From positions 48,176,001 to 48,240,000 of the forward strand of contig OZ076409.1 in the NCBI GenBank assembly GCA_964187785.1: a stretch of DNA of 64,000 bases, read 5' to 3'. The position numbers and the translations under genes are program-made. Source of the DNA: Amphiscolops sp. MND2022. Lineage: Eukaryota. The notes beneath the pieces were generated by a model that was given only the letters and a program-made list of their open reading frames with translations, had not been told where the DNA came from and ran no database searches. Each line of letters starts with the position of its first letter. Within the stretch, counting starts at the first letter, position 1. This document shows, one piece after another, positions 14,476 to 63,522 of this stretch.

Positions 14476-14499
14476 TTTGGGAACTGAGAAGAGAAAAAA

Positions 14500-17400: not shown

Positions 17401-20400
17401 AAGTGTGGAAACGCCAAGCCCTGGGCAGTGCGAACGAAGCTGGGATGGATGCTCAGTGGTCCATTGCCTCAGCAAGAGACAGCAAAGCTCGCAACTGAAA
17501 GTCTAGTTGCAGCAGAAGTGGACCCGTTAGCGGATCAAGTGAAGTCTTGGTGGAGCATGGAATCGTATGCTTCCAATTGCAGCGCATCCGGAAGGTCCAA
17601 GGAAGACGAGCGAGCCCTCGAAATGCTCAAAGCAACCACGAAGTTCGACGGAAAGAGATACGAGGTCGGGCTACTTTGGAAAAATGCAAAGCCGCATTTG
17701 CCAAACAATTACAGTTCGGCAGTAAGTCAATTGAAGTCTCTCGAGCGCCGACTGGAAAAGGATGCGAACTTGAAACAACGCTACAAAGAGACAATTGATG
17801 TGGACGTACAAAAGGGCTTTGTGCGAGTTTTGGACGAAGCAGAGCTTGAAAACACTAATTCAGACCTTCAGTGGTATGTTCCGCATCTCCCTGTGCTGAA
17901 CCCGAACAAGCCGGACAAAGTGAGACGAGTGTGCAACGCTGCCTCAAAGTTCGGAGGTGTTTCGCTGAATGATAACTTGATGGCCGGTCCAGACCTCCTA
18001 CAATCGCTGATAGGAATTATCTTCAGATTCAGGGAAAAGGAAATCGCCCTGACAGCAGACGTCGAAGCAATGTTTCTCCAAGTGAAAGTACCCCCTACTG
18101 ATTGCAGAGTACTGAGATTTTTGTGGAGAGAAAACCACACTGACCCTATCTCTGTGTATGAATATGGAAGACACATTTTTGGAGCTAAGAGTTCGCCAAC
18201 ATGTGTCAACTACGCTTTGCAACAAGTCGGACGAGACAGCAGAGATGACAATGGGATGGTTGCAAAGTTGATCAACAGAAACTTCTATATGGACGATTTG
18301 GTGAAGTCAGTAGCTTCGAGGGAAGAAGCTGTGGAAGCGTATAAGTGCTTGCGAAAATCCTTAGCGGATCGTGGCTTTCAACTAACGAAATGGATCTGCA
18401 ACTCAGAGAAAGTAATGGAAGAAATTCCTTCTGAAGATAGATCAGACGCGCTAAGTAAAACATTCGAAGCTGAACCCTTGGCACCCTCTATCTTGGGACT
18501 CCAGTGGAATGTGGAGTCAGACAGTCTTGAGATTTGCCGCGGTACGGGAAAAGAGGTGCCTGTCAAGATCACTCAGAGAATTGTTCTATCTCACGTATCC
18601 TCTGTGTTTGACCCGTTTGGATTGTTTTCCCCCTTCACAGTGAGAATGAGATTGTTGCTCAAAGGAATTTGGAAGAAGCATGGGCAATCGTGGGACGAAC
18701 AAGTTTCTCCAGAAGACGAGATTGCTTTCAAGGATTGGGCATCGGAGTTGAGTCACATGAATGAAATGGCTATCAAAAGAAAATATCTATCGAAAAATGC
18801 TGAAGTAGTGGATTTGCATATTTTCGCCGATGCATCCCTGGAAGCCATGTGCATAGTTGCCTACTTTCGAGATCAACAAACTGGAGAGCTTGCCTATGTG
18901 TTAGGGAAATGCCGAGTAGCGCCAATGAAGCAACAATCAATTCCCCGACTAGAGCTACAAGCAGCCATGTATGGAACCCGATTAAAACAACTGATCGTAG
19001 ACGAACACGACATTCAAGTTGAACGAACTTTCTTTTGGACGGATTCGACAACCGTTTTGCAATGGTTGCATGGAGCTGACAAGAAACAACCGGTGTTTGT
19101 AGCGAATAGAGTCGCTGAAATCCTTGACAGTTCAACTATTGATCAGTGGAGACATGTCGAAGGAACCTTAAACCCTGCCGACATTGGAACAAGAGGAAAA
19201 TCCGTCCACGAATTAGAAAAGAGCGAGTGGTTCACAGGGCCGGCATGGCTTCAAGAAAAGGAAGATGCTTGGCCACAAACCTCACCACAGTTGTTTCAGC
19301 AGAAAACAGAAGACATAGAGCAAGTCTTTGAAGTCGTGTCAGAAGAAAAAGACATTGATTGGGAGAAGTTCGGTTCTTTCAGAAGAATGACCCGGATCTT
19401 CGCCTATTGCCTTCGGTTCAAATCAAAAATCAAAGGAAAGGTGGTAATAACAGAAGAAATGCAGCAAGTGATCCGACTATTACTGAGGAAAAGTCAGATG
19501 GAAAGCTTCTGTCAAAGTTATCAAGCATTGGCCGCAGGTAAACCCCTGGCGGCATTTGATCACTTGAACAAACTATCACCATTTATGGACGATCAGAACC
19601 TCATGCGATTCAGAGGACGACTGCGTCACGCTGATGCCAGTTATGAAATGAAACATCCAATTTTGCTATCTGCGAAGCATCCAATAGTGAGGAAATTGAT
19701 TGAAGATGCTCACGAAAGTAACTATCATGAAGGAACAGAGTATGTTCGCAGTATTTTGCAGCAAAATTACTGGATAATTGGACTCCGAAACGCGCTCAGA
19801 AATGTGAAATTGAAGTGTGTTAAGTGCAGAAAGCAACAAGTTGGAGGAGTTCAACCTTTCATGGCAGACCTACCTAAAGAAAGATTGGAAGAAAGAGTTT
19901 TCCCTTTTGCCAATACTGGCGTAGACTATTTTGGACCATTCGAAGTGAGATTCATGAGGAAATCAATGAAACGATGGTGTTGTCTATTCACATGTTTAAC
20001 AACAAGAGCTGTGCATATTGAAGTCGTGCCCAGCCTGGAAGCCGACGCATGTCTTGCTGCAATTACGAGATTCATGGCACGAAGAGGAAAACCCAACGTC
20101 ATTCTAAGTGACAATGGAACAAATTTCGTGGGCGCAGCAAGAGAAATGCGAGAATGGATAGAAGCTTGGAATCAATCAGATATTGAGCAGTCTTTGGCTC
20201 TAAAGCAAATAAAATGGAAGTTCAACCCCCCAGGTGCGCCGCATTTTGGAGGTGTTTGGGAGCGAATGGTCAGAAGCTGCAAGAAAGCTATGATGGCAAT
20301 AGTCGGAAACAGAACACTGACAGATGATGTACTATCCACAACTATGTGTCTAGTCGAGCAGATATTGAATTCGAGACCTCTGACTAGTGCCAGTGATGAT

Positions 20401-20883
20401 CCGGAAGATTTGGAAGCTTTGACTCCAAATCACTTCCTGCTAGGACGTGCAAGTCCAGCAACCCCATTTATTCCTGACGCTCAGCGATATACAGATCTGA
20501 GAAGAGTATTCAGAGTATCACAAGCATACGCAGACATGATTTGGAGCAGATGGAATAGAGAATATTTACCCCAATGGAATGAGAGATCTAAATGGAATAA
20601 AGAAGAAGTTAGACAACTGGAAGTCAATGATTTGGTTTGGATAGTGGACGAGAATGTAAAAAGAGCACACTACAAGATGGGTAGATTGTTGGAAGTCTAT
20701 CATGGAAGCGATGGGCGAGTGAGATCAGCGCTGGTGAAAACGGAAGATGGAAAACTCAAAAGACCAGTAGTGAAACTGGCACCCATGTTCTACGAAAGTG
20801 TTTTTCGGGAGAAAAACAGGGCCGGCAATGTTGGCGCCAACCATCAGAAGGCAGAGAAACTCGATTCAGAACATGTTGGTTGA
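14500..20883 (+). CDS. BEL/Pao Gag-Pol polyprotein (Gag, Zn knuckles, aspartic protease, RT, RNase H, integrase)
   Basis: LPKLKLAEFSGDPLEW gag domain; three Cys/His knuckles; LCDSGA protease; NFYMDD RT; LHIFADAS RNase H; HHCC plus GVDYFG/SDNGTNF/WERMV integrase. The ORF ends 55 nt inside the 3' LTR. Confidence 0.97.
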   Translation: MAQPKRFDINKVENFLKNSADAAQIVSHWNAAYEHGETIRTIDENLARNDDNKQIAELLLRRIDVINRRERLFKAIQNAIKIKYQPQITEMFSTVIQVIKSRFVELQQQNSSIGKLIILMSALQDENQILNYLDLEEKKRAIDERIAHNEKLREERIENGEDAEEDYAAACQALLQERSDLKLKIEALLKSGEAGAILRSLEDAEQRLADVRASVAADKSSRNDTSTQKEPEPDEEQKEDNGYNADDSQERNKCARSLPIEELSIHSRSKRTKSNKTSVISKTSSARRVLDLELNALKEQEELQSRLEKLRRNAEQNEIADLQEKLARKAKIAEKEIEMAKVPSSCGSSFRSISPVETPDDNLTKVSDWMDKTEEAENVASTTNVPSVYQQTSVSAPVVTVQSMHEGQCSALVGDLNPPVKPTISTEAASRGIGKHRTKTVIDAVSQSATAQPEVKFAPSKPSMTLSADPNRLPPTFGGIQSGAFQVPQLANTQKQYMPSQGPNIVSNARDDYYIRSSLPKLKLAEFSGDPLEWPEWSQLFQATVHAANMDDSVKMNHLKTMVTGKAKEAIAGLGYTAEMYNVAWNVLVRNFGKPQMVVNAQLKRIYSFPPMKPYDGAALIKFARIVSSCVNVLTQFNYVGDLNSEGVLGSATRKLTLDMKTKWLTYVKQMNLCQPGLAVFSEWLNDIADVQDELLLSSNPNADRAKSNYKEKTKGSTFATSTTNTTSDNSKYQRECALKDGKHPIWKCEKFKKMNVEERGQKAKELKLCFKCLSDAHQMRNCSGRLCDVNGCGKPHHRLLHRPYKNVEQKKNVENVDEVSNLSSMRSSGVLPVIPVSIGSGSKTVKTFVLCDSGASLSFVDESLMKALNLTGQPVDLNVAGIHGTSDISSKRLRVKIGDQDGKVKEDIMAYSHPDVNAGNRTYNLKKLKEEYPHLSVLKDSTINLKEVKVILGQDCYHLHRAIDYRKCGNAKPWAVRTKLGWMLSGPLPQQETAKLATESLVAAEVDPLADQVKSWWSMESYASNCSASGRSKEDERALEMLKATTKFDGKRYEVGLLWKNAKPHLPNNYSSAVSQLKSLERRLEKDANLKQRYKETIDVDVQKGFVRVLDEAELENTNSDLQWYVPHLPVLNPNKPDKVRRVCNAASKFGGVSLNDNLMAGPDLLQSLIGIIFRFREKEIALTADVEAMFLQVKVPPTDCRVLRFLWRENHTDPISVYEYGRHIFGAKSSPTCVNYALQQVGRDSRDDNGMVAKLINRNFYMDDLVKSVASREEAVEAYKCLRKSLADRGFQLTKWICNSEKVMEEIPSEDRSDALSKTFEAEPLAPSILGLQWNVESDSLEICRGTGKEVPVKITQRIVLSHVSSVFDPFGLFSPFTVRMRLLLKGIWKKHGQSWDEQVSPEDEIAFKDWASELSHMNEMAIKRKYLSKNAEVVDLHIFADASLEAMCIVAYFRDQQTGELAYVLGKCRVAPMKQQSIPRLELQAAMYGTRLKQLIVDEHDIQVERTFFWTDSTTVLQWLHGADKKQPVFVANRVAEILDSSTIDQWRHVEGTLNPADIGTRGKSVHELEKSEWFTGPAWLQEKEDAWPQTSPQLFQQKTEDIEQVFEVVSEEKDIDWEKFGSFRRMTRIFAYCLRFKSKIKGKVVITEEMQQVIRLLLRKSQMESFCQSYQALAAGKPLAAFDHLNKLSPFMDDQNLMRFRGRLRHADASYEMKHPILLSAKHPIVRKLIEDAHESNYHEGTEYVRSILQQNYWIIGLRNALRNVKLKCVKCRKQQVGGVQPFMADLPKERLEERVFPFANTGVDYFGPFEVRFMRKSMKRWCCLFTCLTTRAVHIEVVPSLEADACLAAITRFMARRGKPNVILSDNGTNFVGAAREMREWIEAWNQSDIEQSLALKQIKWKFNPPGAPHFGGVWERMVRSCKKAMMAIVGNRTLTDDVLSTTMCLVEQILNSRPLTSASDDPEDLEALTPNHFLLGRASPATPFIPDAQRYTDLRRVFRVSQAYADMIWSRWNREYLPQWNERSKWNKEEVRQLEVNDLVWIVDENVKRAHYKMGRLLEVYHGSDGRVRSALVKTEDGKLKRPVVKLAPMFYESVFREKNRAGNVGANHQKAEKLDSEHVG

Positions 20884-30835: not shown

Positions 30836-30975
30836 ATTTTTGTGTTTAACATATCAATAATGTTATAATCTAATATTCTACGGTTAAAACAGATAATTGT
30901 TTTAATTAAAACAAACATCTGTTTTAACCGTAGAATAATAGATTACAACATTATTGATATGTAAAACACAAAAAT
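30836..30975. repeat. 140-bp near-perfect palindrome
   Basis: 70-bp arms with 5 mismatches and no spacer. Confidence 0.92.
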
Positions 30976-30976
30976 A

Positions 30977-31062
30977 GAAGATAGAAATAGATACTTGAAG
31001 AGAATCGAGTTAAAGTCTTAAGACTTTAACTCGATTCTCTTCAAGTATCTATTTCTATCTTC
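30977..31062. repeat. 86-bp perfect palindrome
   Basis: 43-bp arms that are exact reverse complements, centred on CTTAAG. Confidence 0.95.
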
Positions 31063-37500: not shown

Positions 37501-38160
37501 TGTGACGTCATGATGCATGACTTCAAGAATCCTAATATTTGTTAAAGTATATTTAAACTCCCTGACCTAACAGCATGACAGATGCCATTTTATTTAAATG
37601 TTAATACTTCAATTATAGAGATGCTAATATTTCGAATGATTTCATTATAGAAGTAATCCGGTCAATCTCATCTTGTAATGATTTTAGTTCTAAATAACCT
37701 GAATACTGATTGATGTAATAACTGAAACTATATACTCAAAGTAACTTGAATGTTTTAATCTGACAGTGCTCTCATTTAGGAAGAAAAAGAATTCTGAGCT
37801 CTCAGTCTAACTTAGTCAAACTCAGTTCAGTAGAAATGATAGCTATCTAGACGGTACTCCTGATAAGACTTAAAAGAACTTCTTATGTATTCAGTAAAGG
37901 AAATTAAGATAAACATCCAACAAGTCTTTAACAGCTCAATTGGTGCGACCACGAAACTTCTCTTTTCTCTTCCTCTAGTACCTCAAATTCATTCTTCTTG
38001 TAGAAGCTTTCTAATTTTTTTCATTCGATACCTCTTTGTTCGCCATACAGTTTCACCTCCTCTCTCTATCGTATATCAATATTAACTTTCCGTTCCAACC
38101 AATTTTCTCTGAAAATTGATTCGTGTTGGTATGGTTCTGACTACGTTCCATACGTAATTC
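37501..38160 (+). repeat. 5' LTR of the env-bearing element
   Basis: TGTGACGTCATG...CATACGTAA(TT). Colinear with 54467-55119. The exact 3' boundary is uncertain by a few nt. Confidence 0.85.
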
Positions 38161-38302
38161 CTGTCAGTTAAATCTTCTTCGTTCCAACCACTTTTCAAGT
38201 GATACGTGTTGGTCATACTTATTTCCGTTCCAACCACCTCACCCGTGATTCGCGTTGGTTACTTCTCTTTCGTTCCACCGCAGACGTGCGATACGTGTTG
38301 GT
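38091..38302 (+). other. Array of four bulged stem-loop motifs CGTTCCAAC-[variable hairpin]-ATWCGY-GTTGGT
   Basis: Copies at 38091-38130, 38180-38213, 38226-38259 and 38271-38302 (the fourth has CCAC for CCAAC). Inner stems differ in sequence but always pair. Confidence 0.8.
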
Positions 38303-38702
38303 TTCCACAACGTGCTATCCAGCGATTCCTGCTAGTAAAAAACTCTTGGTTCTAGCCGCTTGGACCAACTTTAAAATAGTTGGCACAAAAACATAACACA
38401 GTTTCTCTTCTTTTATACTTCTGTAAACTGATTTTTCACTATAGTACATTCTTCTTCTTTTCTAAAACACTCCTATCTATAATACAAATTCTGATTTATA
38501 ATACAAATTCTATCTATAATACAAACTCTATCTTTGCTAACGTTAATACTAACCTTTAGTACTATTCATATATAACACAAACTCTCCCTTTAATATCATT
38601 TCAATACAAGTTCTAATACAAAATATGTCTTTATTTAATACACTTTTCTTACAACAAGTACAGAACAAAACTTACCTTTAATACAATTAACGTACAAAAT
38701 TA

Positions 38703-39095
38703 ATGCCTTCTATTGACACTTTAGTACGATTTCTAATTCTACTTTGGTTCTCTCTTGGTATACTTGCTGGTATTGCCCTTTTCTTTGACAGATTTTTGGT
38801 TTCTTTTATACCTAAATTCTGATATCTAACATACACTCCAAAATTTCTACAATCCTTATACAACACTCATCTTCATATGATACATACTATAATACTCCCC
38901 CTTTTTGGACTCTTTGGAATATGTTATACATTTTGTACCTTAATTTCACTCACATCTAACAAAGTATTACTTATTTTTCTTACTTTACTCGCTATTTTAA
39001 TTTAAATTACATTTATAGAACTAATTCACTTTGATACAAAATACTTTATTACACAATACCTGTTTTCACTATGGCACAATTTCTTTTCTAACTGA
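38703..39095 (+). pseudogene. Hydrophobic multi-TM ORF upstream of gag, with two in-frame stops
   Basis: MPSIDTLVRFLILLWFSLGILAGIALFFDRF...ILPLFGLFGICYTFCTLISL...VLLIFLTLLAILI; 131 codons in one frame. Confidence 0.45.
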
Positions 39096-42000
39096 TATTT
39101 AATATAATACAAAATATAATGCTTCCGCCTCCATTCCTATTATCCCACAACATAGATCTGCACGTTCAGTCACTCAAGATGTAATACCTTTCTTAAGCAA
39201 CCTAATTTTTCAGTACACCAATCCACTTTCATTTGAAACTGAAGCACATTCAATACATACAATACCATTACTTCGAGAACACTTAGTTTCCTATCTTTAT
39301 TACATCAGGTATAAAACTTTAGAAATTACTCCATCTCAGCAACCTTTTCAAATTATTTTTAACCCAATACAAGATATTAAACCAGGAACATATTTCAGAA
39401 CAATTCACCCTCGAAGTTTGACACTATCGATACAAGATATTTTCATCAGTTATATAGATAAACTTATAAAACACAATGAAAACTTGGATAAACCACTATA
39501 TCGACCTTCTCATCTTGAAAGTTTAAAAGACAAAGCTGATTATTTCGATGTACCTGATATTGATACAAAAATTCAAACACACAGTAATCCCCATTATTGG
39601 CTTCAACAAGATCTTCTACAAGTCACAAACTTCCAATACAAAATTTACACTTCCGAAATATTACACTAACTGACGATACAATACCCCAAATCAAAGTCTT
39701 CTCTCACTTTCTCCTAAAGTATTTTAGATTTAATTATCAACTATTATGGGAACAAAAAGATCAAACCGCATATGTTAACTTTCCTCATGTACTCACAGAA
39801 TGTGAACTCGTACCATTTATCACACAAATACTTTCAAACACTCCTTTTACAAAGACTTCACTACATTTCCTACATCATATTTTGAAAATATCATCTTGAA
39901 CTCTGATTTTATAATAGAACAATCAGAAATTTCTGATAGTAGACCTTATATAACTACTGTTAATATTTCACCATTCAATAAACACATAGTACAAGAAACC
40001 TTTGATAATGATGACAACGTCATTCACCATCAACCAACAACACCACAACCACCATCTCATTTACCACGAGTTACTACTGAATCTATTCAAGATACTCTTG
40101 CAAATCCACACACTTCTTCCACTATTACAGATTCTAATGCTCTTCAAAGACCTACCCACGATATTACAGAAAATACCAAAAATCCCTTTCATCAAGAAGA
40201 TCCCTCTACACTATCTACAATCAATGCTGTTGATACACAACCCCTCCAAACACACCACAGACAAAACTACGATCCTCCGCCTCCTCCATCTAAAACTTCT
40301 ACTCATAGTACTCCTACACATTCACCTCAACAAGGTTCATCTTATACATTTCAAAATAGAGAACACACCCTAACGCAATCACAGTCTCAACTAAATACCC
40401 CTCCACGACAATCTACACAAACAATACAATATATTCCTGTTCAACCTTCAATAACACAAAATCCTAATACCGTTTTTACAATCAATACCCTACATACCAA
40501 TCCTGTAACTAATACAACAACGTCTGGTGCACTATCTAGACCTCCTTTATCACTAATTCAAAACAACCCGCTCTCGTAAAACCTTACTAGTACTAATTTT
40601 CACTCACAACCATCTTCAAACATTACTCAATATAATACTAATATTCAACCCTCTTTTACTCAATTTAACAATCATATCCCTCCTAAAACAATACAAACAA
40701 ACCCACATGTTAACCCGACCTCTATTCAACCTGAAGCGAATACTCTAAACATACCTCCAAATTCCTTTAATTCTCACACTACTCACACTATACCTTCCTC
40801 TACTACACTTTTAACTACATTAAATACCCCAACCTACATTAACTCTTCTGCATCTATTGTCAAACCTATCAAACCTTTTGATGGTTTGGACCACAACTAT
40901 ACACCAGAAGAATATTTACAACATATTGAGGCCCGTGCAACATTTTCTCTAGGATTAAAACCTACTACTGCTCATGAACATAAATTTTTGCACGCTCGCC
41001 GAATGGCTTTTAAACAATGTTCATTAATTGGAACTGCTCTTAGTTGGTAGATTCTTTTGAATGATACTCATAAACAAGAAGAACGCCTATTACGCACAAG
41101 TTGAAGCTCTTAGCTTGGTTAAAAAGACAATGAAATTGTTCGCCATTTTGCACTGAAAGTTCAACAGCTGGTTGAAAAAGGCTGGTGTAATGAGAATGCA
41201 TCGACTATAAATCTCAAATGTAATGAAATCTTCACAAAAGCACTTCCAAAAACTCTTAAAGACTTTGCAAACAAACGACGAGTTAAACATACGTCTACTG
41301 TTTTAGAACCTTCAATTCCTTTTCACACTCTAGTCGACCTTGTTGATGCTGAAGACATCGCAAATGACAAAATACGTACACATTATCTTACTCTGGATGT
41401 CAACAATATTACAAAACAGCTACAAATTCAAACATGAGATTCACAACAATCTGATCAAGTACTGTTTACACAACCTCGAGACCCTAATGCCAAAACTAAA
41501 CCGGCTAACAAGTAATACTGTTTCTACTGTCACAGAACAAACCATTCTATCTCTGCTTGTTTCAAAAAACAACGAGATGATAAAGACAGACGTGATAATT
41601 ATGCAAGATCAAAATCTCCTCAGAAATCTTTTGTACAAAATTTTCGTTCATCCTCCATTGACAAAACATCAAGATATGACACAAGATCAAACGAATATCC
41701 AAATAGATATCGCAGTCGAAGTACATCTCGTAAAAACTATCAGAGAAATAACAATCCCCATTATAGACAAAGATCTACATCTAGAACTCGTTACAATTAT
41801 GATCGAAACACTACTCCTCCACATTACACTCGATCACGTTATGATAATTATCAGTGAGACTCTCGATCACATCGTTCACCATACAGGTCTTCTTATAGAT
41901 CACCATACACACGTGATTCACGTCCTAGATACAAATCTCGATCTTACTCCAGAGATGATAACTTCCAAAAATGCACTTCTTCATATAGACCTCCTTCAAG

Positions 42001-42110
42001 ACCTAAAGATTCCAGATAATCTAGATCTCATTCACACTCTAATACACGAAATAAAGTCAATAATATTCAACCACAATCTCCTATAGATCCAATTACCTTT
42101 GGAATACACA
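39071..42110 (+). pseudogene. gag: long N-terminal and Pro/Thr-rich region, capsid, Zn knuckle, Arg/Ser-rich tail; degenerate
   Basis: IKPFDGLDHNYTPEEYLQHIEAR (~40865); FALKVQQLVEKGW (~41147); CFYCHRTNHSISAC knuckle (~41520); RS-rich stretch at 41700-42050. Confidence 0.8.
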
Positions 42111-45100
42111 TGTATCACCCAACAGAAATGGCAAATGCATTAACTCCCACAATTTGGTTTTACTCCTTACATACACATGTTTCACCAAACCAAACCCAAC
42201 GTGACTATCCATCTAGACTTGAAATTTCTTTTCTCTTGGATAGTCGCGCTTCGATCTCTGTATTAAACTACCCTACTTTGTTACAATTGCAAAACTTCTT
42301 AATATTAAACAAAACAATCCACAAAAATCGTCTAAAACACTAACAGTTGCAAATCAACCAGAAGTTCCTATTTTACACTACGTCACTCTCACCTTAAATA
42401 CAACCATAGAAGATGACTCTCGTCAATTTACAGAACCTTTTGCAGTAGCAGATATAAAATACAAAATTCTTGGTACACCCTGCTTTGAAGAAAATATACA
42501 GAACATAAATCATCAAAATTTTACATTACAATTCAAACATCACTCTAGAGTACACCCAAACTATACAAAATTTACTTCACTTCTATCCAAAGATTACCCA
42601 TATTTCTAATATATCTATCGAATTAACCCAAAAACACAAGTTCGTCTAAAACCTAACTCCTCTAAAGTATCACACTTCCCTATAAACAATTATTACAACC
42701 TTCATTTCTCAACGACTCCACAGAATCAATTTTTCCCTACAAAACCACATACTTATTTTCCTTCAAAATTTCGTAAAACCTTCCGTTTCATTGAAGTTTT
42801 CACGGATGACAAACCAGACAATTGTGCTACAATTATCCAAAACTCTACGAATCTTGTTGCAGCACTTCCTACAGGACACATTGGATATATAGAAGTTTCA
42901 ATGACTAATGAAAAACCTAAATATTACCAAGTCAATGATATAAATACACTCATACACAATGTCACTCATACATACCACCCTAATATTACGGAACCAATTC
43001 CACAAACAAATTACTCTGTACCGCCCAATCATGATACCTTCTCTACTACTCAATCTCTCTATAATGTCCAACCCACTTCTCACACTTCAAAACCTCGAGT
43101 TTTTTCTTCATTACCGTATTCTCCCGAAATTCTCAAATTTATAAACAAATTCAACTTCCAATTTTCTGATCTAACAAATACCGAATACGTTACACTATGC
43201 AACCTATTACTCAAATAGAAAACATGTTATTCTACCCATTAAAATGATGAACCAATCCATTACCGTGATAAACTCAACAATCTTCCTAAAGAACTAGAAA
43301 AACATAACATTATCAAACAAATAGGTTCTTCTCAAGACAAACCAGTCTAAGGCAGAACTTATTTAAATCCTCTTATTATTATACCTAAAGGAGATTCCAT
43401 TAAATGTGTGTTAGATGCACAACACCTTAATTCTAATACAGAACAATCTGACGAATCCTGGCCTATTGAATTTCTTGCTCCACAATTGGCACGAGCGAAT
43501 AAAAATACAAATGTGCAATAGACCTCATGTATGCTTATGCACAAACACCTCTTGATGAAGAAACTATTAAACTTACAAGTTTCTCCTCCGGAGACAATTT
43601 TATCGCATTTATAAGAGGCTTTTATGGTCTCAAAGGACTTCCGAATTTCTTTACAAAACAAATGTCAACCTTTTTCAAACTCTTATTGAACAAGGTTTTG
43701 CTCTTGTTTGCATAGATGATATTTTACTCTTATCAAATTCTAAAGAACATATGTTTCAACTTATCGAACAGTTACATATTATTAGTACAAAAAATAATCT
43801 CAAACTCGCCCGAGACATCCTTTTTCATGCCTCTCAAAGTCAAATTTTTGGGACATGAAATAGGTTACAATACAATCAAACCCATTCATTCAAAAATTGC
43901 AGCCATACATAAAATTTCTTCTCCCACTGGAAAAGTTGCCCTAAAGAGTTTCATAGGTGCACTTAACTTTTATACAAAATTTATAGACAAACTTCATATT
44001 AACCTCAAACCATTTTACGATCTATTACATGAAAACACTCCTTGGAAATGGACAGATGAACATGAACGTTTATTCCAACCATTAAAGACATCTCTTACTT
44101 CTGACACAGAACTTACAATCCCCAAAACAAAACACCCATTCTTTATTAAAGTAGACGCTTCACTTATTGGATTAGGCGCTGTCCTATTTTAATTAAATTA
44201 ACTAAACAAAATGAAAGTTATATCTTACAATTCACGTATATTAAACCCACAAGAACAAAAACTCGCTACTCTTGAACGTGAACTCCTTGGTATAGTCCAT
44301 GCCCTTCAAATCTACGAATTCATCATTATAGATTCCCCCCTTCCGATCCTTATATTCACTGACCACAAACCTCTTTTACATTGTTTTACAAAAAAAGGAA
44401 ACCTTAGTCCACGATTCTATTGAGCTCAAATGCAACTTACCAAATTCTCAAAACATAAAATTATACTTACTCCTGGAAAAAAATTTTCTGTTGCTGACTC
44501 ACTCAGTCGCTCTTTTACGAAAGAAGAACTCCAAATAAATCAATTAAAACACAAACTCCTTCCACCTCAAATTGACTTTACAATATTACAAAACAACACC
44601 CTTAAACCCGTACATTACTTGATCAAACACGAAGAAGTTTTACCACATCAGAAACACGACTCTCATCCAATCCTTGCCGATTATGGTACAGATCAATTGT
44701 CAATACGAATTATTGACAAAGGTAACGATAATATAGTTAAACCGTTAAACTCTTTTTATTCCAAAGCTGTCACTCCCTTTCAATTCAAATTCAAAACACC
44801 TACAAAAAAACATAATAAATCTTTTCATCAACAATCTCTCCTATTGAACGATACTGATGTTACAAGTGATGACGAAGAACATATATACACTAGAATTCCA
44901 AAAAATAATTTTCCTTTCTCTACTGACGAAACGTTACATGATCAAGAAGAAACTTTCTCTACAATCGAAAAATCAACACCCAATACAATACTAAAACCAT
45001 TATCAGAATCAAGTTCTGATATCGATGTACAAACCAATTCAAATCCTATAACACATTCTCCACAAATTAAACCTTTCTATGATCCTCCCTTCTTCGGATA

Positions 45101-46980
45101 CAAAACTCACTTTCAAGGCTTCTTTCTTCCTGATGATTACTCTTTCGACCTCAAAACATTCCAAACACAACAATCCCAAAATCCTATTCTCAGAACTGTC
45201 CATTCTTGGATATCTCGAAATGAGAAACCAGAGTTTCTTACACCTCTAATCACTGGCAACCCTTTTTTACACGCGTATTGCAAACGATTTTCACAACTTT
45301 TTATCGATGATACTACAAACCTCATAAGCCTATATACAACAAATCCGCTTCCTCCTGAAACACATTCTATTTCAATTCCAAAATAAATATATAAAACTAT
45401 TCGAATTTGTCTCCCTTTTAGAATGTTTCAAACTGTATACAGCAAACTTCACGAACACTCTCACACAGGTATCAAAATCACATATAACACTTTTCACAAT
45501 ATTATTACATTCCCCATCTTGAAAAATGGTTATCTATTTTTATACATGACTGTATTGAATGTCAACGAAATAAACACTTCGTTATGAAAATCCAAACTGC
45601 TCCTACACCAGCATTTGCAGAACATGCTCCTTCTTTTAATTACAGAATTTCTATGGACACCAAAGGACCTATCAATCCTCCTTCAGCACACAAATCATAC
45701 ATTCATGTCATGGTCGACGCTTTTAGTCACTTTATTGTTACTGTTCCAATTAAATCAAACAATGCCAAAACCGCAGTTAAAACTCTATTACACCATTGGA
45801 TTACCAAATATGGTCCACCTATATACCTTGTTACAGACCGTGGATCTGAATACATAAATAACGATATGGCACATCTTTGTACTCTTATGGGAATTAGACA
45901 TTCCTCTAGAACAGCTTATTCTCCTTGGACAAACGGCATTGTAGAAGTACAAAACAGAAATCTTGGCACTCACTTCCGTATGTTTTTTCATAACACTCCT
46001 CAAGATTGGGCATTCCAAGTACATGTGTATGCATATGCACACAATTCACAATTAGAACTCCATGTTTCACCGTATGAAATTGTTTTTCACACAAGACCCA
46101 GAATCCCACTTACCTTTGATTTAAACCTTAATCGTAATGCCTCCAAAACTTGTGTTTCACATTATTGTTCTCAACTTCCAGAACATTCACACTACGACAA
46201 AACGGATTTAAACCCATTCTTTTATAAAAATCTCTAAACCTATCCCACAATGGTTTCTCGCTGTCGAAACTGCAATGTTACAAATATACTCCACTGTATA
46301 TTACTACACCCAAAAAAAACTAAATTCTTACGCTTACATTACTAAAACTTATCATGACGGAAAACCACTTCCTATTGGCACTTTTGTACTCAAACGTCCT
46401 TTTGCACATGTCCATTTTTCAGACAAACTTAAACCCCTTCGGATTGGTCCATACAAAATCTTTGATAGATTATCCGATGTTACATATGAACTTCTTGCAC
46501 AAAATGGTTCTACATTACACGTTCATAGAAATCATTTAATACCTTACTATCCTAAAGAACCACTCTTATATCCTCATCTACGTCATTTTATGCGTTTCTC
46601 TGACTCAAATAACTATGATAATAATACTCCAAATCCCAATAATTATGCAAACAGTGACTCATCACCTTTTAATTCCGATGAATCCCTTTCTGACAATCCT
46701 TCGTCATCAGATGACCAAAACCCTTCAAAGAAAGACCTCTTTCATAACTCATCAAATACTAATATTGACGGAGAGTCCTCCGTCAAATATTACCTCACCT
46801 TTCAAACAAATCCTCAAAGTCCCTGATAATGATCAATTTTCCGACAGAACCCGTCTCCCATCTCAAAACCAATCAACACCTCTCTATACTACAGATAATA
46901 GAAATACCAAAACTCATTATAACTTAAGACAACAACCCAAAATGGACTATCGTCTTTTCATACCACCATCCAAACTTTGA
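42110..46980 (+). pseudogene. pol: aspartic protease, RT, RNase H, integrase; multiple stops and frameshifts
   Basis: FLLDSRASISVL (protease, from DSGA); CVLDAQHLN, IDLMYAYAQ, FYGLKGLPNFF, VCIDDIL (RT); VDASLIGLGAVL, ERELLGIV, FTDHKPL (RNase H); ISMDTKGP, VTDRGSEY, NGIVEVQNR and GPY (integrase). Confidence 0.92.
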
Positions 46981-47039: not shown

Positions 47040-48320
47040 AATCTAAACAAGCTGAACTATCACACTGGGTTTTTCACCTTAGACATCTTCCTCTGCTCCT
47101 AGTGTACCTTCTTCATCTGAATCTTCGGTTTCACAAGTTACCCAATCAAGCAATGTAACTCCTGTAACCCCTTCAAAACGACCACGATCTCTTATAATTT
47201 AACCACTTCTCCTACACAATCCTCTCAAACAACCTCTACTCATATTAGTAGACCACCTATTGCTGAGATACCACTTACCCCTCGTTCTCGATCTCAACCA
47301 TCAACTCGTACACCGGTAATTCATATACCACATCCTCATACTGTATCACACATTGTAATCTACAAACAGCCAACTGCTAAAAAAACTGCTCGCCTTCCAC
47401 CTCATTACCAACATAAATTAGATCTAGTACAAATCCCTGACATAGAATACACACCTCTTCCTTCATTACACCTACCATCTGAATCGTCTAAAACTACTCA
47501 ACTTACCTTCCTTGAAAACCTCTCAGACACCCTTCAACTTCTCTTTCTAATTTGTTAGATTCTGCATCTGAGTATCAACCACAAACAGATACTTGTAGCT
47601 CCGATATTGTACCTCAACATAGATATAATCTTAGACCTTTACCGAACAGACGCCTCAGTGCTACTGACTCGTCAACACTTAATATTTCAGCACTATCCAG
47701 TAATTCTGCAATACGTCTTCTCAGACAACACGCTCAACCCTTATCTTCTGAAAGCCCACACTCTTCAGAACTTGTCCCACAATCTTATTTTACAACTGGA
47801 GTTGGCACTGCTTCGTTAATTTCCTCTGATGTTCAAACTGTATACCTCTCAGGAAATTTCTTTTCTGAAGTTCTAATACCCACACCTGTGGCTCCTCACG
47901 TAAGAATCCCTGAATATTTTACATCTGTTCACTCAAGACCACCTACTCCCAATTTTGTAGATTATCCTATCCGTGTAGACGGAACGACTATCTACGATCC
48001 TCAAAACGATCCTCGTTTCCCTTTTTTACAGAACATTTTATTGCAAATATTAACTCACTTTCTAATAAAAGAAAAGAACTTGAACTCAAACGTCTTCAAA
48101 ATCCCAACTTTGAATTAAAACTTGAAGTCAAAGTCAAATTCCAAGGTCTTAATCCTCATCCTATATTTCACGTTGCAAAGATTGAACATAAAACAACCCC
48201 TGCTCCGTTTGAAGTCATTTTAACTGATTTTAATCGTGACCCAGAATTACATGACTTAGCTTATGGCAAAATCGTTTTCTACAACCCTTATTTTGGTCTC
48301 AAATATACTACTTCTTTTTA
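47040..48320 (+). pseudogene. Ser/Pro/Thr-rich ORF of unknown function preceding the glycoprotein
   Basis: ORF 47552-48118 plus adjacent frames (KRKELELKRLQNPNFELKLEVKVKFQG...YGKIVFYNPYFGLKY). May be an N-terminal extension of env. Confidence 0.45.
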
Positions 48321-50849
48321 ACAAATATACTTCTATTACATATATACTACTTTTCTATATCCCAATATATTTTACTTCTTCTATTCCTACTACTCCCACT
48401 GATGATAACCAATACCTTCCATCTGATGATCCAAACATTACCAATCTTATTTTCTGTCATTATGACTGTGCAAAACAACATAACCTTCGCCAACTTAATC
48501 TCATTAATGTAAAACAATGTACTGAAGCTCCTTCTAACATACAACACGCAAATGTTCAAGCCTGAGTTTATGTAAGAGCAAAAGCCAAACATGTTCGCGC
48601 TTTCAAACGTGAAGCTTATGCTAAAAAGAACGAAAAGTTTGCTTTCAAGGCAATGTCAAATACCGAATACCGACGTGTTGATCGAACTGTTTGGAATCAT
48701 AACACTATGCCACTACCTATCACTCTTGAATGTAAAAACCTTATTAGACATCCTATTGGAACTGATAATAAAATATTGAACAATCTCAACTATAACAATA
48801 CTTTTACACTAGTAGAAGACCACTATTTTCAAGGACAATTAGAACGATTTCAGACTCCTTTTACTGTATATAATTTTACCAAATGTAAACAGGAACCTTT
48901 CCTTATATGCCTGCTGACAAAAATTGGATATATGACCCACTTCGCAATCCTCATCATAACTGTCCTGCCCATCATCAATTTGAAGTCAACCTAGTAAGTT
49001 GGCGACTTGCAATATATGAAATAGAATTAACTTATGATGATACTCAAAATGTTGTGATAATTGATGGTCACACTTTACCATTGAAACAGACTCCTTTGTA
49101 CACTCCTCTATTCCCAAAAAACCTGCCACCAACGCTGGTATTAAGGTACTTCTTATCCTTATGTCCATGCTCCACATGCACAAAACCCACATAACCCAAG
49201 TCTTTCACACTTTGAAGTATTTCCTAATGCTCAATCCTTTTGTGGTAAACCTGAACCTCATTATTCTACTCAACACTCTGATCATTTTGTTACTTACACT
49301 GAAGGATTTGATATGCATACAGGATAAGCAAATCCTAGCTCCATTATAAACAATTGTATTTCCGGTAAAATAGTATTGAACAATTCTAACAACAAAAACA
49401 TATTCCCAGCAATAAATGTTTCCAACAATTTTGCTACAATAGACTATGATGCACATATAATTTCAAAGATAGATTACACTATTAACCATGTTTTTCGTTC
49501 AATGACTGTCCAAGAACTAAATACTTTTCATACAGTATGTTAATTAGAACGGAACCAACTTCTTACAATACTTGCAATGTCTGTACAGAACACTCAACTT
49601 GCTGGCTTCCTTCTGACAGGCAATCGCAGTAATTACCTCTATGTTGAAGGTTCTACTGCTTGGCTTTATGATTGTCCACATTTTCTTTCTCCATTATATG
49701 TTACTGACCGCTGTTTTGACAGAATTCTTATTCACTTTGAAGACACTCTTATGTACGTTGACCCTATTACACGCCAAACATTTCAGTATGCTACTCCTAT
49801 CACATGCGAAAATAATCCAAAGAACATTATCGAACCTGAGCCAGACTCAGATGATCAAGACAGACTTTTATATACTTGGTCTTGAACCTATTAAAAGAAA
49901 ACCACCACTTATGTTTATTCCTTCGCAAAGTAAAACTACAATACGCCCTAATACTTTTACAGCTCAAGATGCTGGTATATATTCTAATGCTAAACTAGAT
50001 CAATTTTGGAATAGAATTCTATTTTCAAAACATTCAGAAACTACACTACAACTTTTGGGAAAAGCCGTTAGTTGTTCTCTTTTCTTTCCTCTAACACACC
50101 TTATTATGATGCCAATACCCCACATGACAATCCATACAATACACTTCGTATTGGACTCCATGATAGACTAATTAATCTTACACCACTTTTTACTCCTACA
50201 TGGTTTTCAGATGCTTTTATCGCTTTATTTGGATACACAATGTAAAATATATTTTTCTACATATCGTTTCATACAAACAATGTTAACACTCATAGTTAAA
50301 CTTTAAACAACTATTTCAATCAAATACAATCTTAAACAAAACATCACAGTTCTTAGCTCTCTTGCTCATGGTTTTTTGAATATTTTTACAGCTGACATGT
50401 TACATGACCTAAAAAATGCTCGTTCCAAAAGATCTCTTAAAAGTTCAAATCACCTGTCCAACATTACTGAAAGCTCATTAGATGAATCCTCTTTAAATCA
50501 TCGTGATACAACTGGTATTTCTTCAAATCCAACTGGCATTATTTCACCACCACCATTTTATACAAAACGTCCGACTAGGATTTCCAAAATGACACGTTTT
50601 AAATTCCTTCCCAGAGGGAAACAGTATTCCAATCAAAAACGCAATACTGGTCAATCAACATTTACTACATCATCATCATTACCACATTACTCTTCTGTCA
50701 CCACAAATCCTAATGATTATCCTTTAAATACATCACCTGTCGATTGCGAGATGGACACTCCTGTCCGCATACATTCCAAAACAAATTACTCCTTTCCTCC
50801 GCCATCTTTTCAAACTGACCATTCTGACTTTTTCACTTTTCCTGAATAG
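48263..50849 (+). pseudogene. Env-like viral fusion glycoprotein (chuvirus/class III-like), degenerate
   Basis: Hydrophobic leader; FCHYDC...LNLINVKQC; VC*LERNQLLTILAM...LAGFLLTGNRSNYLYVEGSTAWLYDC...PLYVTDRCFDRILIHF...YVDPITRQTFQYATPITC; membrane anchor at ~50200-50400 and a Ser/Pro-rich tail. Confidence 0.75.
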
Positions 50850-51073
50850 CTGCTCGTTGAACAACTTCTTTTCCCTCTCTTTCTTGCTCTACATCAGAAC
50901 TTCTCTTCCAAATTGAGCAACCGCCTCCTCTCCAACTTGAATCCGTCATCGAAATAACACTCAACCGCCCAACAACTATCCGTGTTCTTCCTCCTCCTCC
51001 TCAAACAGCTAATAAAGCTACTCGTTAGTGTTTTCTCAACTAAAAAATTTTTATAAAACAATCTTTCTCAAAT

Positions 51074-52449
51074 ATGACACAAGCACAATTAGATTTTCAT
51101 AGACTGACTCCACATATAACACAAGAACATTTTGATCTTCGAAATCAACTCGAAATGCACACTATGGATCTTATAACAAAACCTCTCTCTAATGATTCTC
51201 CTGTCCTCTTTCTTGGTACTAAAGATCTGCCTACTATATCTTCAAATGACCAAATGAAACTTCAACCTATATCTTCAAAATACAAAACACCTTCAGACCA
51301 CAATAATTCTCCTGAAACTCCACCACCAACAAAAAAGAAATATGAAATAATGAAAGATCCTGCATTTCTTTCATCACCGGTATATCCTCCAATAATACCT
51401 ACAAAACCTCAAAACTCAACTAATCGCAACGAAAATCTTACACCCATACTGTCTACAAATCAATTCTCTTTCAAATCACAATCAACTTCTCTATACATGC
51501 ATCCAACTGACTACAACTTCAAACTCTAAGATAAAAATCAAAACTTCTTCACATCAATTGCTTCTAAAATTATGGCACCTTATCAGTACTGGTTTGATAA
51601 TGGTGTAAAAATACTCTCTCTACAGTTCAACTTTCTCCACCCATCTGTCTATGATCTAGAAACAGATGAAAATGATCCATCTTTCCTATCGAACGCTCAA
51701 AAAGCCAATCTTCACTTCACTTATACTCGCTTTCTTCAACACACCAAACCTCAAAATTACATTTTTGCAAACTACAAATATACATCACCTTTCACGATGA
51801 CAAACCTATATACCATTGACCACTCTAAAATAACAGGATAACTCCGTAATTACGATCCTATCAAACAATACTTTTGTCTACTTCCTCATTATGATACATC
51901 TCGTCCTTTTATCGTACCCCAAGAAGCTCTAATTCATTTTGATGACTTTCTGTTGCCTTGCAACGTTCCAACTCAGATTGTCAAACCGTTGGCAGTAATA
52001 AAACACTTTGTTTCATCACCCTAGATGATAAAGACATTTCTTATTATACAGCTCTCTCAAAGCAATCACAATCATATAAAGAATTTTTGTTCATCGCTGC
52101 GAAAGTCATTTCCTTTATGGTTTAAACAGAACAAAAACATACCTATTCAGATCAATAATCGCCTACAAAATCTCCTATCAAACATTCACAAACCACTAGT
52201 GAAAAACTTTCTACCAAGTTGAACAACCGTACTCTTAAGGACCTAACTCAAATGTTGGACCCATATAAACGAAACCCATCGGATTCTCCAATCACCACTC
52301 TTAACCATCTAATACACTGCTATGACAGAACTTCTAAACTTCTCCAGACTCTAAACCTAGATTCTCAACGTATAACACAATCATCTCGAGCAATTCAATC
52401 TGCTCTTGACTCTATGAATACCCTGTTTAATACTTTCAATTTTCAATAA
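51074..52449 (+). pseudogene. Accessory ORF of unknown function, interrupted
   Basis: ORFs 51074-51529 and 51572-51841 are in the same frame with single stops. Protein-like text continues (LRNYDPIKQYFCLLPHYDTSRPFIVPQE) towards 52449. Confidence 0.6.
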
Positions 52450-52833
52450 ATCATCTCTCAGGTAATACAAATTTCTTTAATTTTTGTACGATCCTATACT
52501 GGACACTTTCTCTATTGAACATTTTCAACCCAAACTACAGGCAACATTCCTATTTTACTTCCCAAAAATTTTGGGACATTATCTATGGTTCCTAATATAT
52601 CTTCTAGCACTCTCTTTTTCGACTCTTTTTCAGAATTACTTTTCATCTATAGTACAAAAACAACATACATAATATAGCACCAGAGTATATAACAAAAAAT
52701 TCCTTGCATTTTGTCTTCAAATCTAAGACTCCATCTGTTTTAGAAACTTCTATTCTTCTTCCTCCTTCTGGACTTCTTTCAGCTTCCGCCAACTCCAAAA
52801 ACTTCTACCAGGATTTCAGCTCTCGTTCTTCTA

Positions 52834-53289
52834 ATGGCTCCGCAAAACTCTGAAATCAAAAAGCTTGGTAACTCCACAACCTCTAAAGTACCTAGTTTAA
52901 AAGCCGCCATCTTCCACACTATGGCCTATAAAATGTCACTGGAAAACAACAACGGCAATGTAACTCTTCCTATCAGACGTTCCTTCCTAAAAGTTCTTTA
53001 CAACGTATGTCAAATCAAGAAAAAGCACATAAATTTCGAACAATACTATCGCATTCATGTTGAAGGCCCAAAAATCGCTGTTTGCGAAACTACTTCGGAA
53101 ACAGTTTTCGTCCTAAATTCTGCAATTACAAGTAAGGACAACTACTTTCAAACTGCCCTAGATGACGCCATAGATGCATTTAATGCTAGCTTTCTCAATT
53201 TTGGATATACTCAACAACTACAACGTTATGACCCAGAAACCCATCAAGTACACCATCCTTCAAAACATCCTTTTTGGCCAACAGAATAA
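52834..53289 (+). CDS. Accessory ORF of unknown function (151 aa)
   Basis: ATG-initiated, globular-looking ORF inside the element on the same strand as gag-pol-env. Confidence 0.55.
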   Translation: MAPQNSEIKKLGNSTTSKVPSLKAAIFHTMAYKMSLENNNGNVTLPIRRSFLKVLYNVCQIKKKHINFEQYYRIHVEGPKIAVCETTSETVFVLNSAITSKDNYFQTALDDAIDAFNASFLNFGYTQQLQRYDPETHQVHHPSKHPFWPTE

Positions 53290-54466
53290 AAAATAACATG
53301 AACCAACCTCACTCATTTCGCTTCTCTGCAACTTCTTCTTACTTTGATGCTGCTGAAATTCTTTAATGGACTCATTGATTTCTTCAACTTCAACATGCAT
53401 CTTTCACTACATGCTTCTCGAACTCTTCTTCACATCGACACTTATTCACTTGCGTCGGTGCTTCTCTTCTTCGCTGTCCATCCAGACACCGTCACTCCTC
53501 ACTTCTTTGACATCGTCAACCACCACCCATCATCGTCACTTCAACCATCACCCATCATCGTCACTTCAACTGTCATCCATTATCACTCTTCAACATCGTC
53601 CAAGACCCAAACACCAGTTTCTTTCGACTTTCAAACTTCAAACATTCATTAGCCTCCAGTTCTTTCGACTTTCAAACTTCAAACTTTCATTAACTCAATA
53701 TTTAACCTTCAATAAGTCGTGTAATCTTTAGTTTAGTTCTTACTATAAATACCCCCCGTATAATCTTTATTTTACTATAATTCTTTGTAATCGTATAATC
53801 AATATTCTAATCTGATGCTATTATAAACTCTCATTTAATCAAATTGTAATCATTTTACTTATTCATTTTGTGCTTAGTACACAAATTTCACTTATATAAC
53901 CCTTAATTGTACTCAATATTTTCTTGTCTTTCTTCTTTTTTTCCAGTACAAGACACCTTCTTCTATAAGACATTTTCGACTTTTGAATTTCAACTGAAAT
54001 TTGAAGTTTGAAGTACTTTCCGAAAAGACTATTCCTCACTTTCTTGAGAATGAAATGAACCTTTGCAATTTTTGACTTCTTCACACTTTGTTCACTACCC
54101 GCCAATGTTTGTTCACAACTCATTGACAACTTTCAGAAATGTTCTTCAACTCGAAAAGTTTCCATTTGAATGCTCATATGAAGAACTCATATATTTTTTA
54201 AAACAAAAGCCTACTACTACAAGTTGTCAAACAATAACTTGAACAACAACGTCAATCAAAACTTTTGACTGACTGAAAAACGTTGCACCAATGTGAACCA
54301 TCAAATCACTAAGAAGTTCAAACCGTCTTAGGTTGTTCTCACTCCTTAAGTATGGTACTCTAACATAACAAGAAACATTAAACACCTATAGTACAAAGCT
54401 CAAGTTTAAAACACACACCCCCTGAAGATACTGATATACTTTACGCTTTCTGAAAACCTGGTCGAT

Positions 54467-55119
54467 TGTGACGTCATGATGCATGACATCAAGAATCTTA
54501 ATACTTGTAAAAGTATAATTAAACTCCCTGACCTAATAGCATGACAGATGCCATTCTATTCAGAAGTTAATACTTCAATTTTTGAGATGCTAATATTTCG
54601 AATGATTTCATTATAGAAGTAATCCCATCAATCTCATCTTGTAATGATTTTAATTCTATATAATCTGAACACTGATTGATGTAATAACTGAAACTATATA
54701 CTCAGAGTAACTTGAATGTTGTAATCTGACAGTGCTCTCATTTAGAAAGAAAAAGAATTCTGAGATCTCAAGCTAACTTAGTCAAACTCAGTTCAGTAGA
54801 AAAGATAGCTATCTAGACGGTACTCCTGTTAAGACTTAAAAGAACTTCTTAAGTGTTCAGTAAAGGAAATTAGGATAAACATCCAACAAGTCTTTAACAG
54901 CTCAATTGGTGCGACCACGAAAATTCTCTTTTCCCTTCTTCTATCACCTCAAATTCATTCTGTACAAACTTTCTAAACTTTTTCATTCGATACCTCTTTG
55001 TTCGCCATAGTTTCACCTCCTCTCTCTATCGTATATCAATATTAACTTTCCGTTCCAACCAATTTTCTCTGAAAATTTATTCGTGTTGGTATGGTTCTGA
55101 CTACGTTCCATACGTAACT
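54467..55119 (+). repeat. 3' LTR of the env-bearing element
   Basis: Colinear with 37501-38160; ends CATACGTAACT. Confidence 0.85.
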
Positions 55120-58261: not shown

Positions 58262-59111
58262 TGTAACGGCTGCTTGATCCCTTCAATTGACCAAACTTTA
58301 CGCCGCCCTGAATTCGGTGCTCGGCACTGCGGATCGTTGCCGAACACTGCTTGCTTCTTAGATTAAAAGGACTGTATCTTGACTTAGTAGGATCCAATGA
58401 TCCCGAATTGCACTTCTTCCTTGTCTCTTAACACGTCCAACTCTCCACAAGTTGAGAGTAACTAACTTAATCGCCCTAAGTCTTTGGCGAAAAGTCGAAA
58501 AGAGGTGAAGAAATGAATTGAGAATTGAAATGGTCCTAAGACCCGACTTTAATACAGCTTTCCAATCAATTTGTGCCTATCTAACAATGGTATACATATC
58601 GTTTACAATTATTCGATAACTATGAGTTGAAATATGAAGTATAAATAAATGACATTTAAGTGAATTATTAAAGTTATTGGCTATGTAAACAAACCATAGT
58701 GTGGGTATAGCATGTTGGTTAGGTGGGCTCTAAGCATGTTTACACAATGTAAATATCATTAATTGCAACAGAGTTACATTCTAATGTGGTCATATAGGTA
58801 AATAACAAAGCTTACATTTTTGGTTCAATGACCTTGAACACCACACATGTGAGGGGTAAAGAGGGTTATAGTATATGAATGACCTTGAAACTTAGCCGGT
58901 GTGTTCGTGTTAGGTGCTTGCATATGTGTGCCAAGTTTCATGTCTCTAGGGTTAATAGTTGTCGAGAAAATCCATTTTGGGGGGGGGTTTCCATTTTTGT
59001 GATGGGAATTTCTTCAAAATTTCATCTAAGTTTTTTTTGAGTTTAAGTTTTGTTTCTCAACCAGCACGTTCCGAATCGAGTTTCTTTGCCTGCTGATGAC
59101 TGGCGCCGACA
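58262..59111 (-). repeat. 3' LTR (850 bp)
   Basis: Minus strand TGTCGGCGCC...GCCGTTACA. Nearly identical to 63523-64000 over the available length. Confidence 0.92.
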
Positions 59112-62585: not shown

Positions 62586-63399
62586 TTGTTCAGACTACGG
62601 TTTTGTTTAACTGAGGGTTTTCTAACTACACAATAGTTTCTTGTCAATTTTGTAACTTTTCCCAAATTCCGCAAATTGTTAGATCTGAAGTATCAACTGC
62701 TCAACCCAGTAATCAGTCGCCAATTCTTGAAGAATCAACCCAACAATGTCGATTATGCTTGCCTTCTTTGACGAACTTGATTGTTTCGGTGGATCTCGTC
62801 CCTCTGACTCGATCCTTTTGCTTTACTTGGTGGATATGCTTGCAGCGACGTCTTAGTTCAAACCTTTGCTTTCAATTAAGAATACGTTTCTCAAGGATAC
62901 CATTCGTCCCAAACTGGAATTGAAGCACAATTGCCTCCAGAGTGCTGCTAAAGCCCAACTCCCAGAGTACACAACCAATCCAGTTCCAAATCGCTCAATA
63001 GTCCAATACCAAAGCCCCAGTGTACACTTTCCCAGAGTTCCAATCACCAACTGTAGACCCATTTTCCACAGTTCTCGATCGTCGTGAATAGTCGTCTCAA
63101 CTACTTGTCGCAATTCCGTCCGAATGCAATGCGACGACTCTTGCAATACTTTTTGATTGCTGTGCGAACAGGCTCACCTGTTGCCACTTTTGGATTTTGG
63201 AAGGTCCCTACAATTAGGCTTGTCCTCCCAGCTCTCTGGTTTGCCAATGAAACCAGCACAGAAGCTTTGTCAAAGCTTCGTGTCACTTGAACAGATAGAT
63301 GTTGTGTCACCCGTTTGATGACTCTAACTGCTCACGTGTCTTCCACCACGACTGCTATCCACACACGATGAAGACGGCGTTCCTCTTGCAGTGTCCACC

Positions 63400-63520: not shown

Positions 63521-63522
63521 AA

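Follow-up and report, generated by a model that had tools for sequence, protein, structure and literature searches.

Among the questions raised by a 64,000-nt stretch of the Amphiscolops sp. MND2022 genome (assembly GCA_964187785.1, contig OZ076409.1, positions 48,176,001-48,240,000 of the forward strand; the whole stretch is called the window hereafter), the one addressed here relates to a tandem series of small bulged hairpins that precedes the gag gene of a decayed retrotransposon: what are these hairpins, and what could they do for the element? A previous sequence-only reading had described four units with a CCAAC/GTTGG lower stem, at 38091-38129, 38180-38212, 38226-38258 and 38271-38301, followed by a CCAACT/AGTTGG hairpin at 38365-38383, and regarded them as a selected RNA structure. 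These hairpins are indeed present, the four units with the bulges and inner stems attributed to them. Two of the reported variants, CCAC in the stem at 38271-38301 and ATTCGC in the bulge at 38226-38258, are correct as sequence, yet they reflect the decay of this particular copy, since other copies have CCAAC and ATTCGT. Moreover, a unit at 38133-38167 and a circularly permuted one at 38317-38364 had been overlooked.

The array consists of five bulged-hairpin units and one circularly permuted unit, all in the 5′ leader and on the + strand. Unit 1 (38091-38129; CG class, 8-bp upper stem) and unit 2 (38133-38167; GG/CC class, lower stem CTGAC/GTCAG) fold as drawn in 84% and 85% of the predicted ensemble, respectively, and the drawn fold of unit 3 (38180-38212; CG class) appears in the best structure only (21%). 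Unit 4 (38226-38258; CG class, 3-bp upper stem) and unit 5 (38271-38301; CG class) are predicted to fold partly otherwise in this decayed sequence; the latter carries a GACG tetraloop at 38283-38286 and has lost one lower-stem base in the window copy. The permuted unit (38317-38364), delimited by its predicted fold and by the comparison of copies, follows the order bulge, lower-stem 3′ strand, loop, GGTT and lower-stem 5′ strand, with an upper stem built from the flanks. It is contained in a predicted multibranch domain (38312-38386), of which the terminal hairpin (38365-38383) forms a branch. The folding energy of the region is weak alone (z -1.65, with 7 of 100 shuffles as good). A structural descriptor that includes a pseudoknot (see below) recovers three units in the 64-kb window against two matches in 20 shuffled windows, and the six strong matches of a covariance model in the window all fall within the array or its 3′ repeat.

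A comparison of 49 copies, which represent two subfamilies (integrase about 80-86% identical) of what we call family A, gives a unit consensus made of (C/G)GTT, a 5-bp lower stem, a variable upper hairpin, the bulge AT(T/A/C)C(G/C)T and the lower-stem partner; 12 of 231 unit calls were dropped, 10 of them chimeric on the permuted unit and 2 decayed true units. Covariation was assessed on the 19 unit sequences that are each shared by at least two copies, leaving aside units seen in one copy only. In this set, 97.6% of the cells are paired and 8 of the 11 pairs have changed on both sides. None of 500 shuffles reached either the paired percentage or the covariation score, while the count of covarying pairs was attained in 28 and that of pair types in 443; these shuffles overstate the case for covariation, because the rows stem from three or four unit classes and the pattern itself presupposes the lower stem. 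Shared departures from Watson-Crick pairing comprise five G-U and no A-C, which points to an RNA of the + strand; private decay is even, at 10 to 10. Folding z-scores are modest and reveal no + strand preference in three of four families. A CpG-decay origin of the covariation was rejected, given the similar observed/expected ratios of CpG (0.69) and GpC (0.68). Between the two subfamilies, identity amounts to 85% in the single-stranded core, 82% in the lower stems, 94-95% in the permuted domain and 92% in the GACG loop, against 57% in the linkers and 43% in the ordinary loops. The covariation, the shared G-U without A-C, and the better retention of stems and bulge relative to loops and linkers all sustain the idea of a selected RNA structure, and the pairing of the upper stems, which had been singled out as the feature to look for in other copies, is retained there.

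Two central bases of the bulge probably pair with the (C/G)G that precedes the lower stem, forming a likely 2-bp pseudoknot of either CG/CG or GG/CC type. The first base of the flank and base five of the bulge change jointly (C-G in 11 sequences, G-C in 8) next to an invariant G-C, a covariation that comes from two unit classes and so amounts to about one evolutionary event; by eye, both bases agree in 99 of the first 100 of 10,535 genome matches to the unit. The permuted unit, found in 48 of the 49 copies and with further compensatory changes in its lower stem, would most simply have arisen from two adjacent units. Unit 5 keeps its GACG tetraloop in 43 of the 49 copies and in 27 of 28 arrays anchored on the PBS (tRNA primer binding site), each element having one such hairpin and not two. 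The loop is predicted to be able to pair with the bulge of its own unit, an option that one subfamily has lost while keeping GACG. Chance alone yields about one hairpin of this kind per 14 kb (30 in 431 kb), and none was found in the arrays of four sister families, B, C, D and E, among eight loci scanned, so that GACG was rejected as a clade-wide feature.

The array is tied to a single kind of element. Searching the 1.07-Gb genome with an IUPAC pattern of the unit gave 10,535 exact matches, compared with four for the reversed pattern; the first 100 of these fall at 24 sites, 23 of which hold at least two matches. Seven loci were taken in genome order, and in all seven an LTR end followed by the PBS lies 160-202 nt upstream of the first exact unit. 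Conversely, 28 of 30 PBS-anchored loci contain at least three units (4-6) plus the permuted one, the two exceptions being the cut-off 3′ copy of the window and a copy with an extended PBS. In family A, the array is present once per element, 150-450 nt downstream of the PBS and before gag. A motif scattered over the genome independently of the element, the other outcome considered beforehand, is not what we see, as the sampled matches all lie in the leader of this element.

The host of the array is an env-carrying Ty3/Gypsy LTR retrotransposon (Metaviridae-like). Its gag-pol remnants (39103-46826, + strand), identified by ORF and domain matches, are interrupted by stops and frameshifts, and keep gag, reverse transcriptase, RNase H and integrase in Gypsy order in the broken window copy and likewise in the relative P0147. 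Another relative, P0002, is nearest to the Ty3 Gag-Pol among solved structures, and its Gag bears a CX2CX4HX4C knuckle and an Arg/Ser-rich tail. Ahead of the Gag capsid domain, the single gag-pol frame encodes about 640 residues with no assigned domain (P0147 residues 1-640; window 39103-40579). Broken env remnants (48260-50171, + strand) correspond to a Monjiviricetes-type fusion glycoprotein (PF24664); the match is weak in the window (E 2e-4, below the cut-off), and the same domain scores above the Pfam cut-off in five of five families. With its gag-pol-env order between LTRs, a tRNA PBS and many copies, the element fits the ancient env-carrying Gypsy elements described across metazoans (PMC13524379, in the part of the report available), whose main text has no match for “UTR”, “Monjiviricetes” or RNA hairpins; its supplements may list related elements.

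Comparison of 30 5′ and 30 3′ loci sets the LTR at about 438 bp, starting with TGTG and ending with CA, which in the window places the 5′ LTR (438 bp, TG..CA) at 37501-37938 and the 3′ LTR at 54467-54904, both on the + strand. The window copy has no target-site duplication. Among seven other copies whose LTRs were paired through their chromosomal position, five are flanked by an identical 4-bp duplication, one by a duplication with one mismatch and one by none. The window LTR seemed 650 bp long because the PBS and the leader are repeated up to 55117: 213 nt of leader, cut off after unit 1 and part of unit 2, run on from the 3′ LTR on the + strand (54905-55117, identified as a sequence repeat). 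A unit directly follows only one of the 30 3′ LTRs, that of the window itself, and unit 1 does not belong to the LTR as had been thought.

Nor does the array take the place of the PBS. Two bases 3′ of the LTR starts an 11-nt PBS (37941-37951, + strand) complementary to the 3′ end, including the added CCA, of the host tRNA-Met(CAT), which was found in 4 of 11 loci scanned and is probably, judging from its sequence, the elongator form. The exact junction of LTR end and PBS has 1,801 genome matches and none with control patterns, the PBS core is retained in the sister families, and tRNA-Met fits every one of them. A tRNA-Arg primer was rejected, as the exact pattern in that register matched nothing, and so was tRNA-Val, for which one gene copy fits 13 nt in conflict with four neighbouring Val copies. 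In three copies (L317, L318 and L319, around position 1500) the PBS is lengthened to 15-18 nt along the tRNA and fused to three different downstream sequences. Two of them lead back into the interior of their own element, which BLAST shows for one and inspection by eye for the other, and copying of the primer would give this result. The third may be a chimera involving family D, in which the PBS has the long complement; such copies are likely to be aberrant second-strand transfers. The 3′ LTR is not preceded by a polypurine tract. In families A, D and E (window 54453-54466; loci L231, L234 and L236), its place is taken by a conserved A-run, then CCCGG or CCGG, then a short spacer. Priming of the plus strand may thus be unusual; the Ty3/Gypsy classification is unaltered.

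Each of the four sister families has its own, different tandem module at or near the matching place. In 20 of 20 loci of family B (integrase about 63% identical), the PBS is the same and is followed by 2-6 three-way junctions, with 100% pairing and 3 of 14 pairs covarying; in family E (about 67%), 19 of 20 loci have 5-7 internal-loop hairpins, with 98.5% pairing and covariation in 1 of 6 pairs. Families A, B and E share a structured leader between PBS and gag. The arrays of families C and D lie upstream of the PBS: 8 of 8 loci of family C (about 38%) have 5-7 hairpins with a single bulge, and 12 of 12 loci of family D have 3-11 hairpins, located inside the LTR and repeated at the 3′ end. The covariance model of the family A motif has no match in 72 loci (441 kb) of sister families, other regions and metagenome relatives. 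These metagenome relatives are about 30% identical and mostly lack the leader, and viral contigs yielded no relative. In distant relatives from other organisms, repeats also occur before gag (L163:1-230; L165:1-120 and 13050-13166); those of L163 are repeated hairpins, one of them with a 6-bp GACG hairpin. For P0067, a protein of another assembly, there is no close copy in this genome.

What would such modules be for? The simplest reading of a repeated fold whose single-stranded pocket is fixed and whose stems are exchangeable is a site where a protein docks, and the wholesale replacement of the motif among families sharing one host argues for a reader encoded by the element. Two features, the GACG loop and a location between PBS and gag, speak for packaging and dimerisation through Gag. 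We consider the chances about even that the array is a multivalent, family-specific packaging and dimerisation signal read by the Gag of the element, which we regard as more likely than recognition by an accessory protein. Several Gag molecules would attach to the pocket that recurs in the bulges, and capsid assembly would start there on full-length RNA; the GACG loops of unit 5 in two genomes would form a kissing contact, and the motif would be replaced as families diverge, so that each family would pick its own RNA.

There are precedents for parts of this model. In the packaging and dimerisation region of MuLV, also made of stem-loops between PBS and gag with a conserved GACG tetraloop, loop-loop contacts of the GACG tetraloops of SL-C and SL-D stabilise the dimer, according to the available text of two reports (PMC5874298, PMC516450). 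Unlike MuLV, the present element has one GACG loop instead of two, no long palindromic dimer-initiation loop was seen, and it repeats five or six times a bulged, probably pseudoknotted module with a putative packaging role; moreover, it is a Ty3/Gypsy element and not a retrovirus. Lineage-specific repeated structural motifs have been proposed as packaging signals in coronaviruses (PMC8206606), and a pseudoknot region is needed for packaging in FMDV (PMC11734982); as far as the consulted portions of these papers go, several short structured 5′ UTR motifs, lineage-specific in the former and pseudoknotted in the latter, are tied there to packaging. However, these viruses and their sequences are unrelated to the element, whose conserved part is the bulge and its flank and not the apical loop. 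Structured leaders and repeated packaging motifs are kinds of objects already known, also from the accessible parts of other reports (PMC13736810, PMC4974528, PMC8206606, PMC11734982). A literature search that covered few subscription papers returned no account of this motif or of covarying RNA arrays in Gypsy leaders.

Several observations count against packaging. Nucleocapsid proteins mostly bind exposed G, and the bulge is pyrimidine-rich, which speaks against it as a Gag docking site. The arrays of families C and D, being upstream of the PBS, would sit on every transcript, and the GACG loop is confined to family A. A packaging signal would be needed in cis. Of 20 sampled copies, 17 span at least 2,500 of the 2,691 gag-pol residues, and a multi-copy non-autonomous derivative with a retained array did not turn up among the 20. 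The four array-less LTR-PBS junctions examined are each single-copy, a status also expected of any rare accident, which limits their value as support. Finally, the Ty1 retrotransposon offers the precedent of a Gag-bound 5′ pseudoknot without a demonstrable packaging role (PMC4974528, in the part seen of that work).

A broader proposal, which we consider less probable, is that every family carries its own RNA barcode, a tandem compact fold read by its own Gag or accessory protein and swapped wholesale at divergence. The fold types would then be the likely pseudoknotted bulge of A, the three-way junction of B, the internal loop of E and the bulged or plain hairpins of C and D, with family A holding a natural circular permutant of a non-catalytic module. 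If true, this barcoding would represent a lock-and-key self-recognition among retroelements that share one genome. Few LTR retrotransposons have a mapped packaging signal, and the present families bear on how related elements of the same genome keep their RNAs apart. Five families with five small covariation-supported modules at a matching place, and thousands of natural variants, make specificity testable on short RNAs and on isolated domains of proteins. Being outside Rfam and available in two chain topologies, the family A module is moreover a good structure target.

Coming back to an accessory protein as the reader, the arrays could work as response elements of the RRE, TAR or CTE kind, bound by such a protein or by a host export factor, and license the export or the stability of unspliced RNA. 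The layout of the clade is that of complex retroviruses, with ORFs behind env. In the window these are remnants at 51044-53289 (+ strand, by ORF comparison), including an ORF of about 440 aa (window 51044-52449; L232:4636-5961, L233:5399-6886, L234:5245-6552) that has a short basic patch and is 36-39% identical among families A, B and E. Family-specific motifs would suit a reader of this kind, and the arrays of C and D upstream of the PBS occupy a TAR-like position. Nevertheless, we find this role unlikely. The Pfam search of the accessory ORFs gave no RNA-binding family, the ORF of about 440 aa has no Pfam family at all (290 relatives were found), and a host factor should preserve one motif across families, which is not seen. 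For a 150-aa ORF, the Atlas leads were all under 0.9. The single leader checked contains no GTRAG splice donor. Families C and D have, 3′ of env, an ORF with a TRAF/MATH domain (L235:7657-8409, L236:6791-7768).

Control of translation, in which an IRES-like or ribosome-shunting array would carry ribosomes over the 1.1 kb of leader and its upstream ATGs and small ORFs, seems rather improbable to us. In one copy examined, five ATGs and a small ORF precede gag, the linkers are U/C-rich, and IRES sequences occur in some errantiviruses (PMC3383448, in the text available). The small ORF of the window (38703-38822, + strand) encodes a hydrophobic 39-aa peptide with a counterpart in family B; similar small hydrophobic ORFs lie between leader and gag in families A and B and, by eye, also in D (L082, oriented, from 3334 on; L099, oriented, from 5276 on). 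But about 300 and 700 nt separate the end of the array from the first small ORF and from gag, respectively, the number of units varies from 4 to 6, and the motif is wholly replaced between families despite a shared host ribosome.

Circular permutants are typically found among natural small ribozymes (PMC11620745, PMC10085705, in their accessible sections), which raises the idea of a self-cleaving motif. It is a very improbable one, as cleavage behind the PBS would sever the primer site from the genome, and the units lack the two-sided 5+6-nt loop with CA of twister-sister-like ribozymes (the former of these reports). The same low probability holds for a fold that blocks exonucleases. The likely 2-bp pairing of the 5′ flank next to the 5-bp stem recalls flaviviral xrRNAs, but the permuted unit has its entry on the opposite side, ill-suited to a ring around the 5′ end, and there is no third stem. 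The Rfam search that the sequence-only reading had advised returned no family match, be it to ribozymes, xrRNAs or retroviral leaders (lowest E 9.1 for the stretch in the window and 0.35 across five loci, the latter outside the arrays).

Only a slight chance is left for repeats that act at the DNA level as enhancer or insulator, on the model of the 12 Su(Hw) sites in the gypsy 5′ UTR. Their position and tandem layout do match those of Drosophila errantiviruses, whose 5′ UTR repeats (the gypsy Su(Hw) insulator, ZAM, Idefix, gtwin) are described as DNA sites bound by proteins in the part of the review available (PMC3383448). The present units, in contrast, covary as RNA helices, and compensatory changes, strand-specific G-U and a circular permutant are unexpected for protein sites on double-stranded DNA.

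The hepadnaviral epsilon consists of a lower stem, a 6-nt bulge and an upper stem, and supports protein priming in the bulge with no tRNA PBS. A priming structure of this sort, or one for self-priming, in place of a PBS has a negligible probability here: the unit shares that bulged stem-loop shape only, with its bulge on the 3′ side and in tandem copies, in a tRNA-primed element with an integrase, and the tRNA-Met PBS directly after the LTR, its core kept in sister families, together with the three copies whose PBS is extended along the tRNA, make an epsilon-like role unnecessary. The candidate of a missing PBS with priming in a bulge at the LTR end was dropped once the LTR end and PBS had been mapped, and the array does not represent a new priming mechanism.

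Other elements of the region and of the loci inspected deserve a brief mention. The window also contains a Bel/Pao retrotransposon with an open frame of 2,131 aa (14488-20883), to which repeats on the opposite strand at 58262-63988 are related. Loci L064-L070 hold tRNA-Trp and tRNA-Arg genes in tandem arrays, many of them degenerate. At 30836-31062 of the window, two palindromes adjoin each other, both without spacer, with 70-nt arms that are 93% complementary and 43-nt arms that are 100% complementary.
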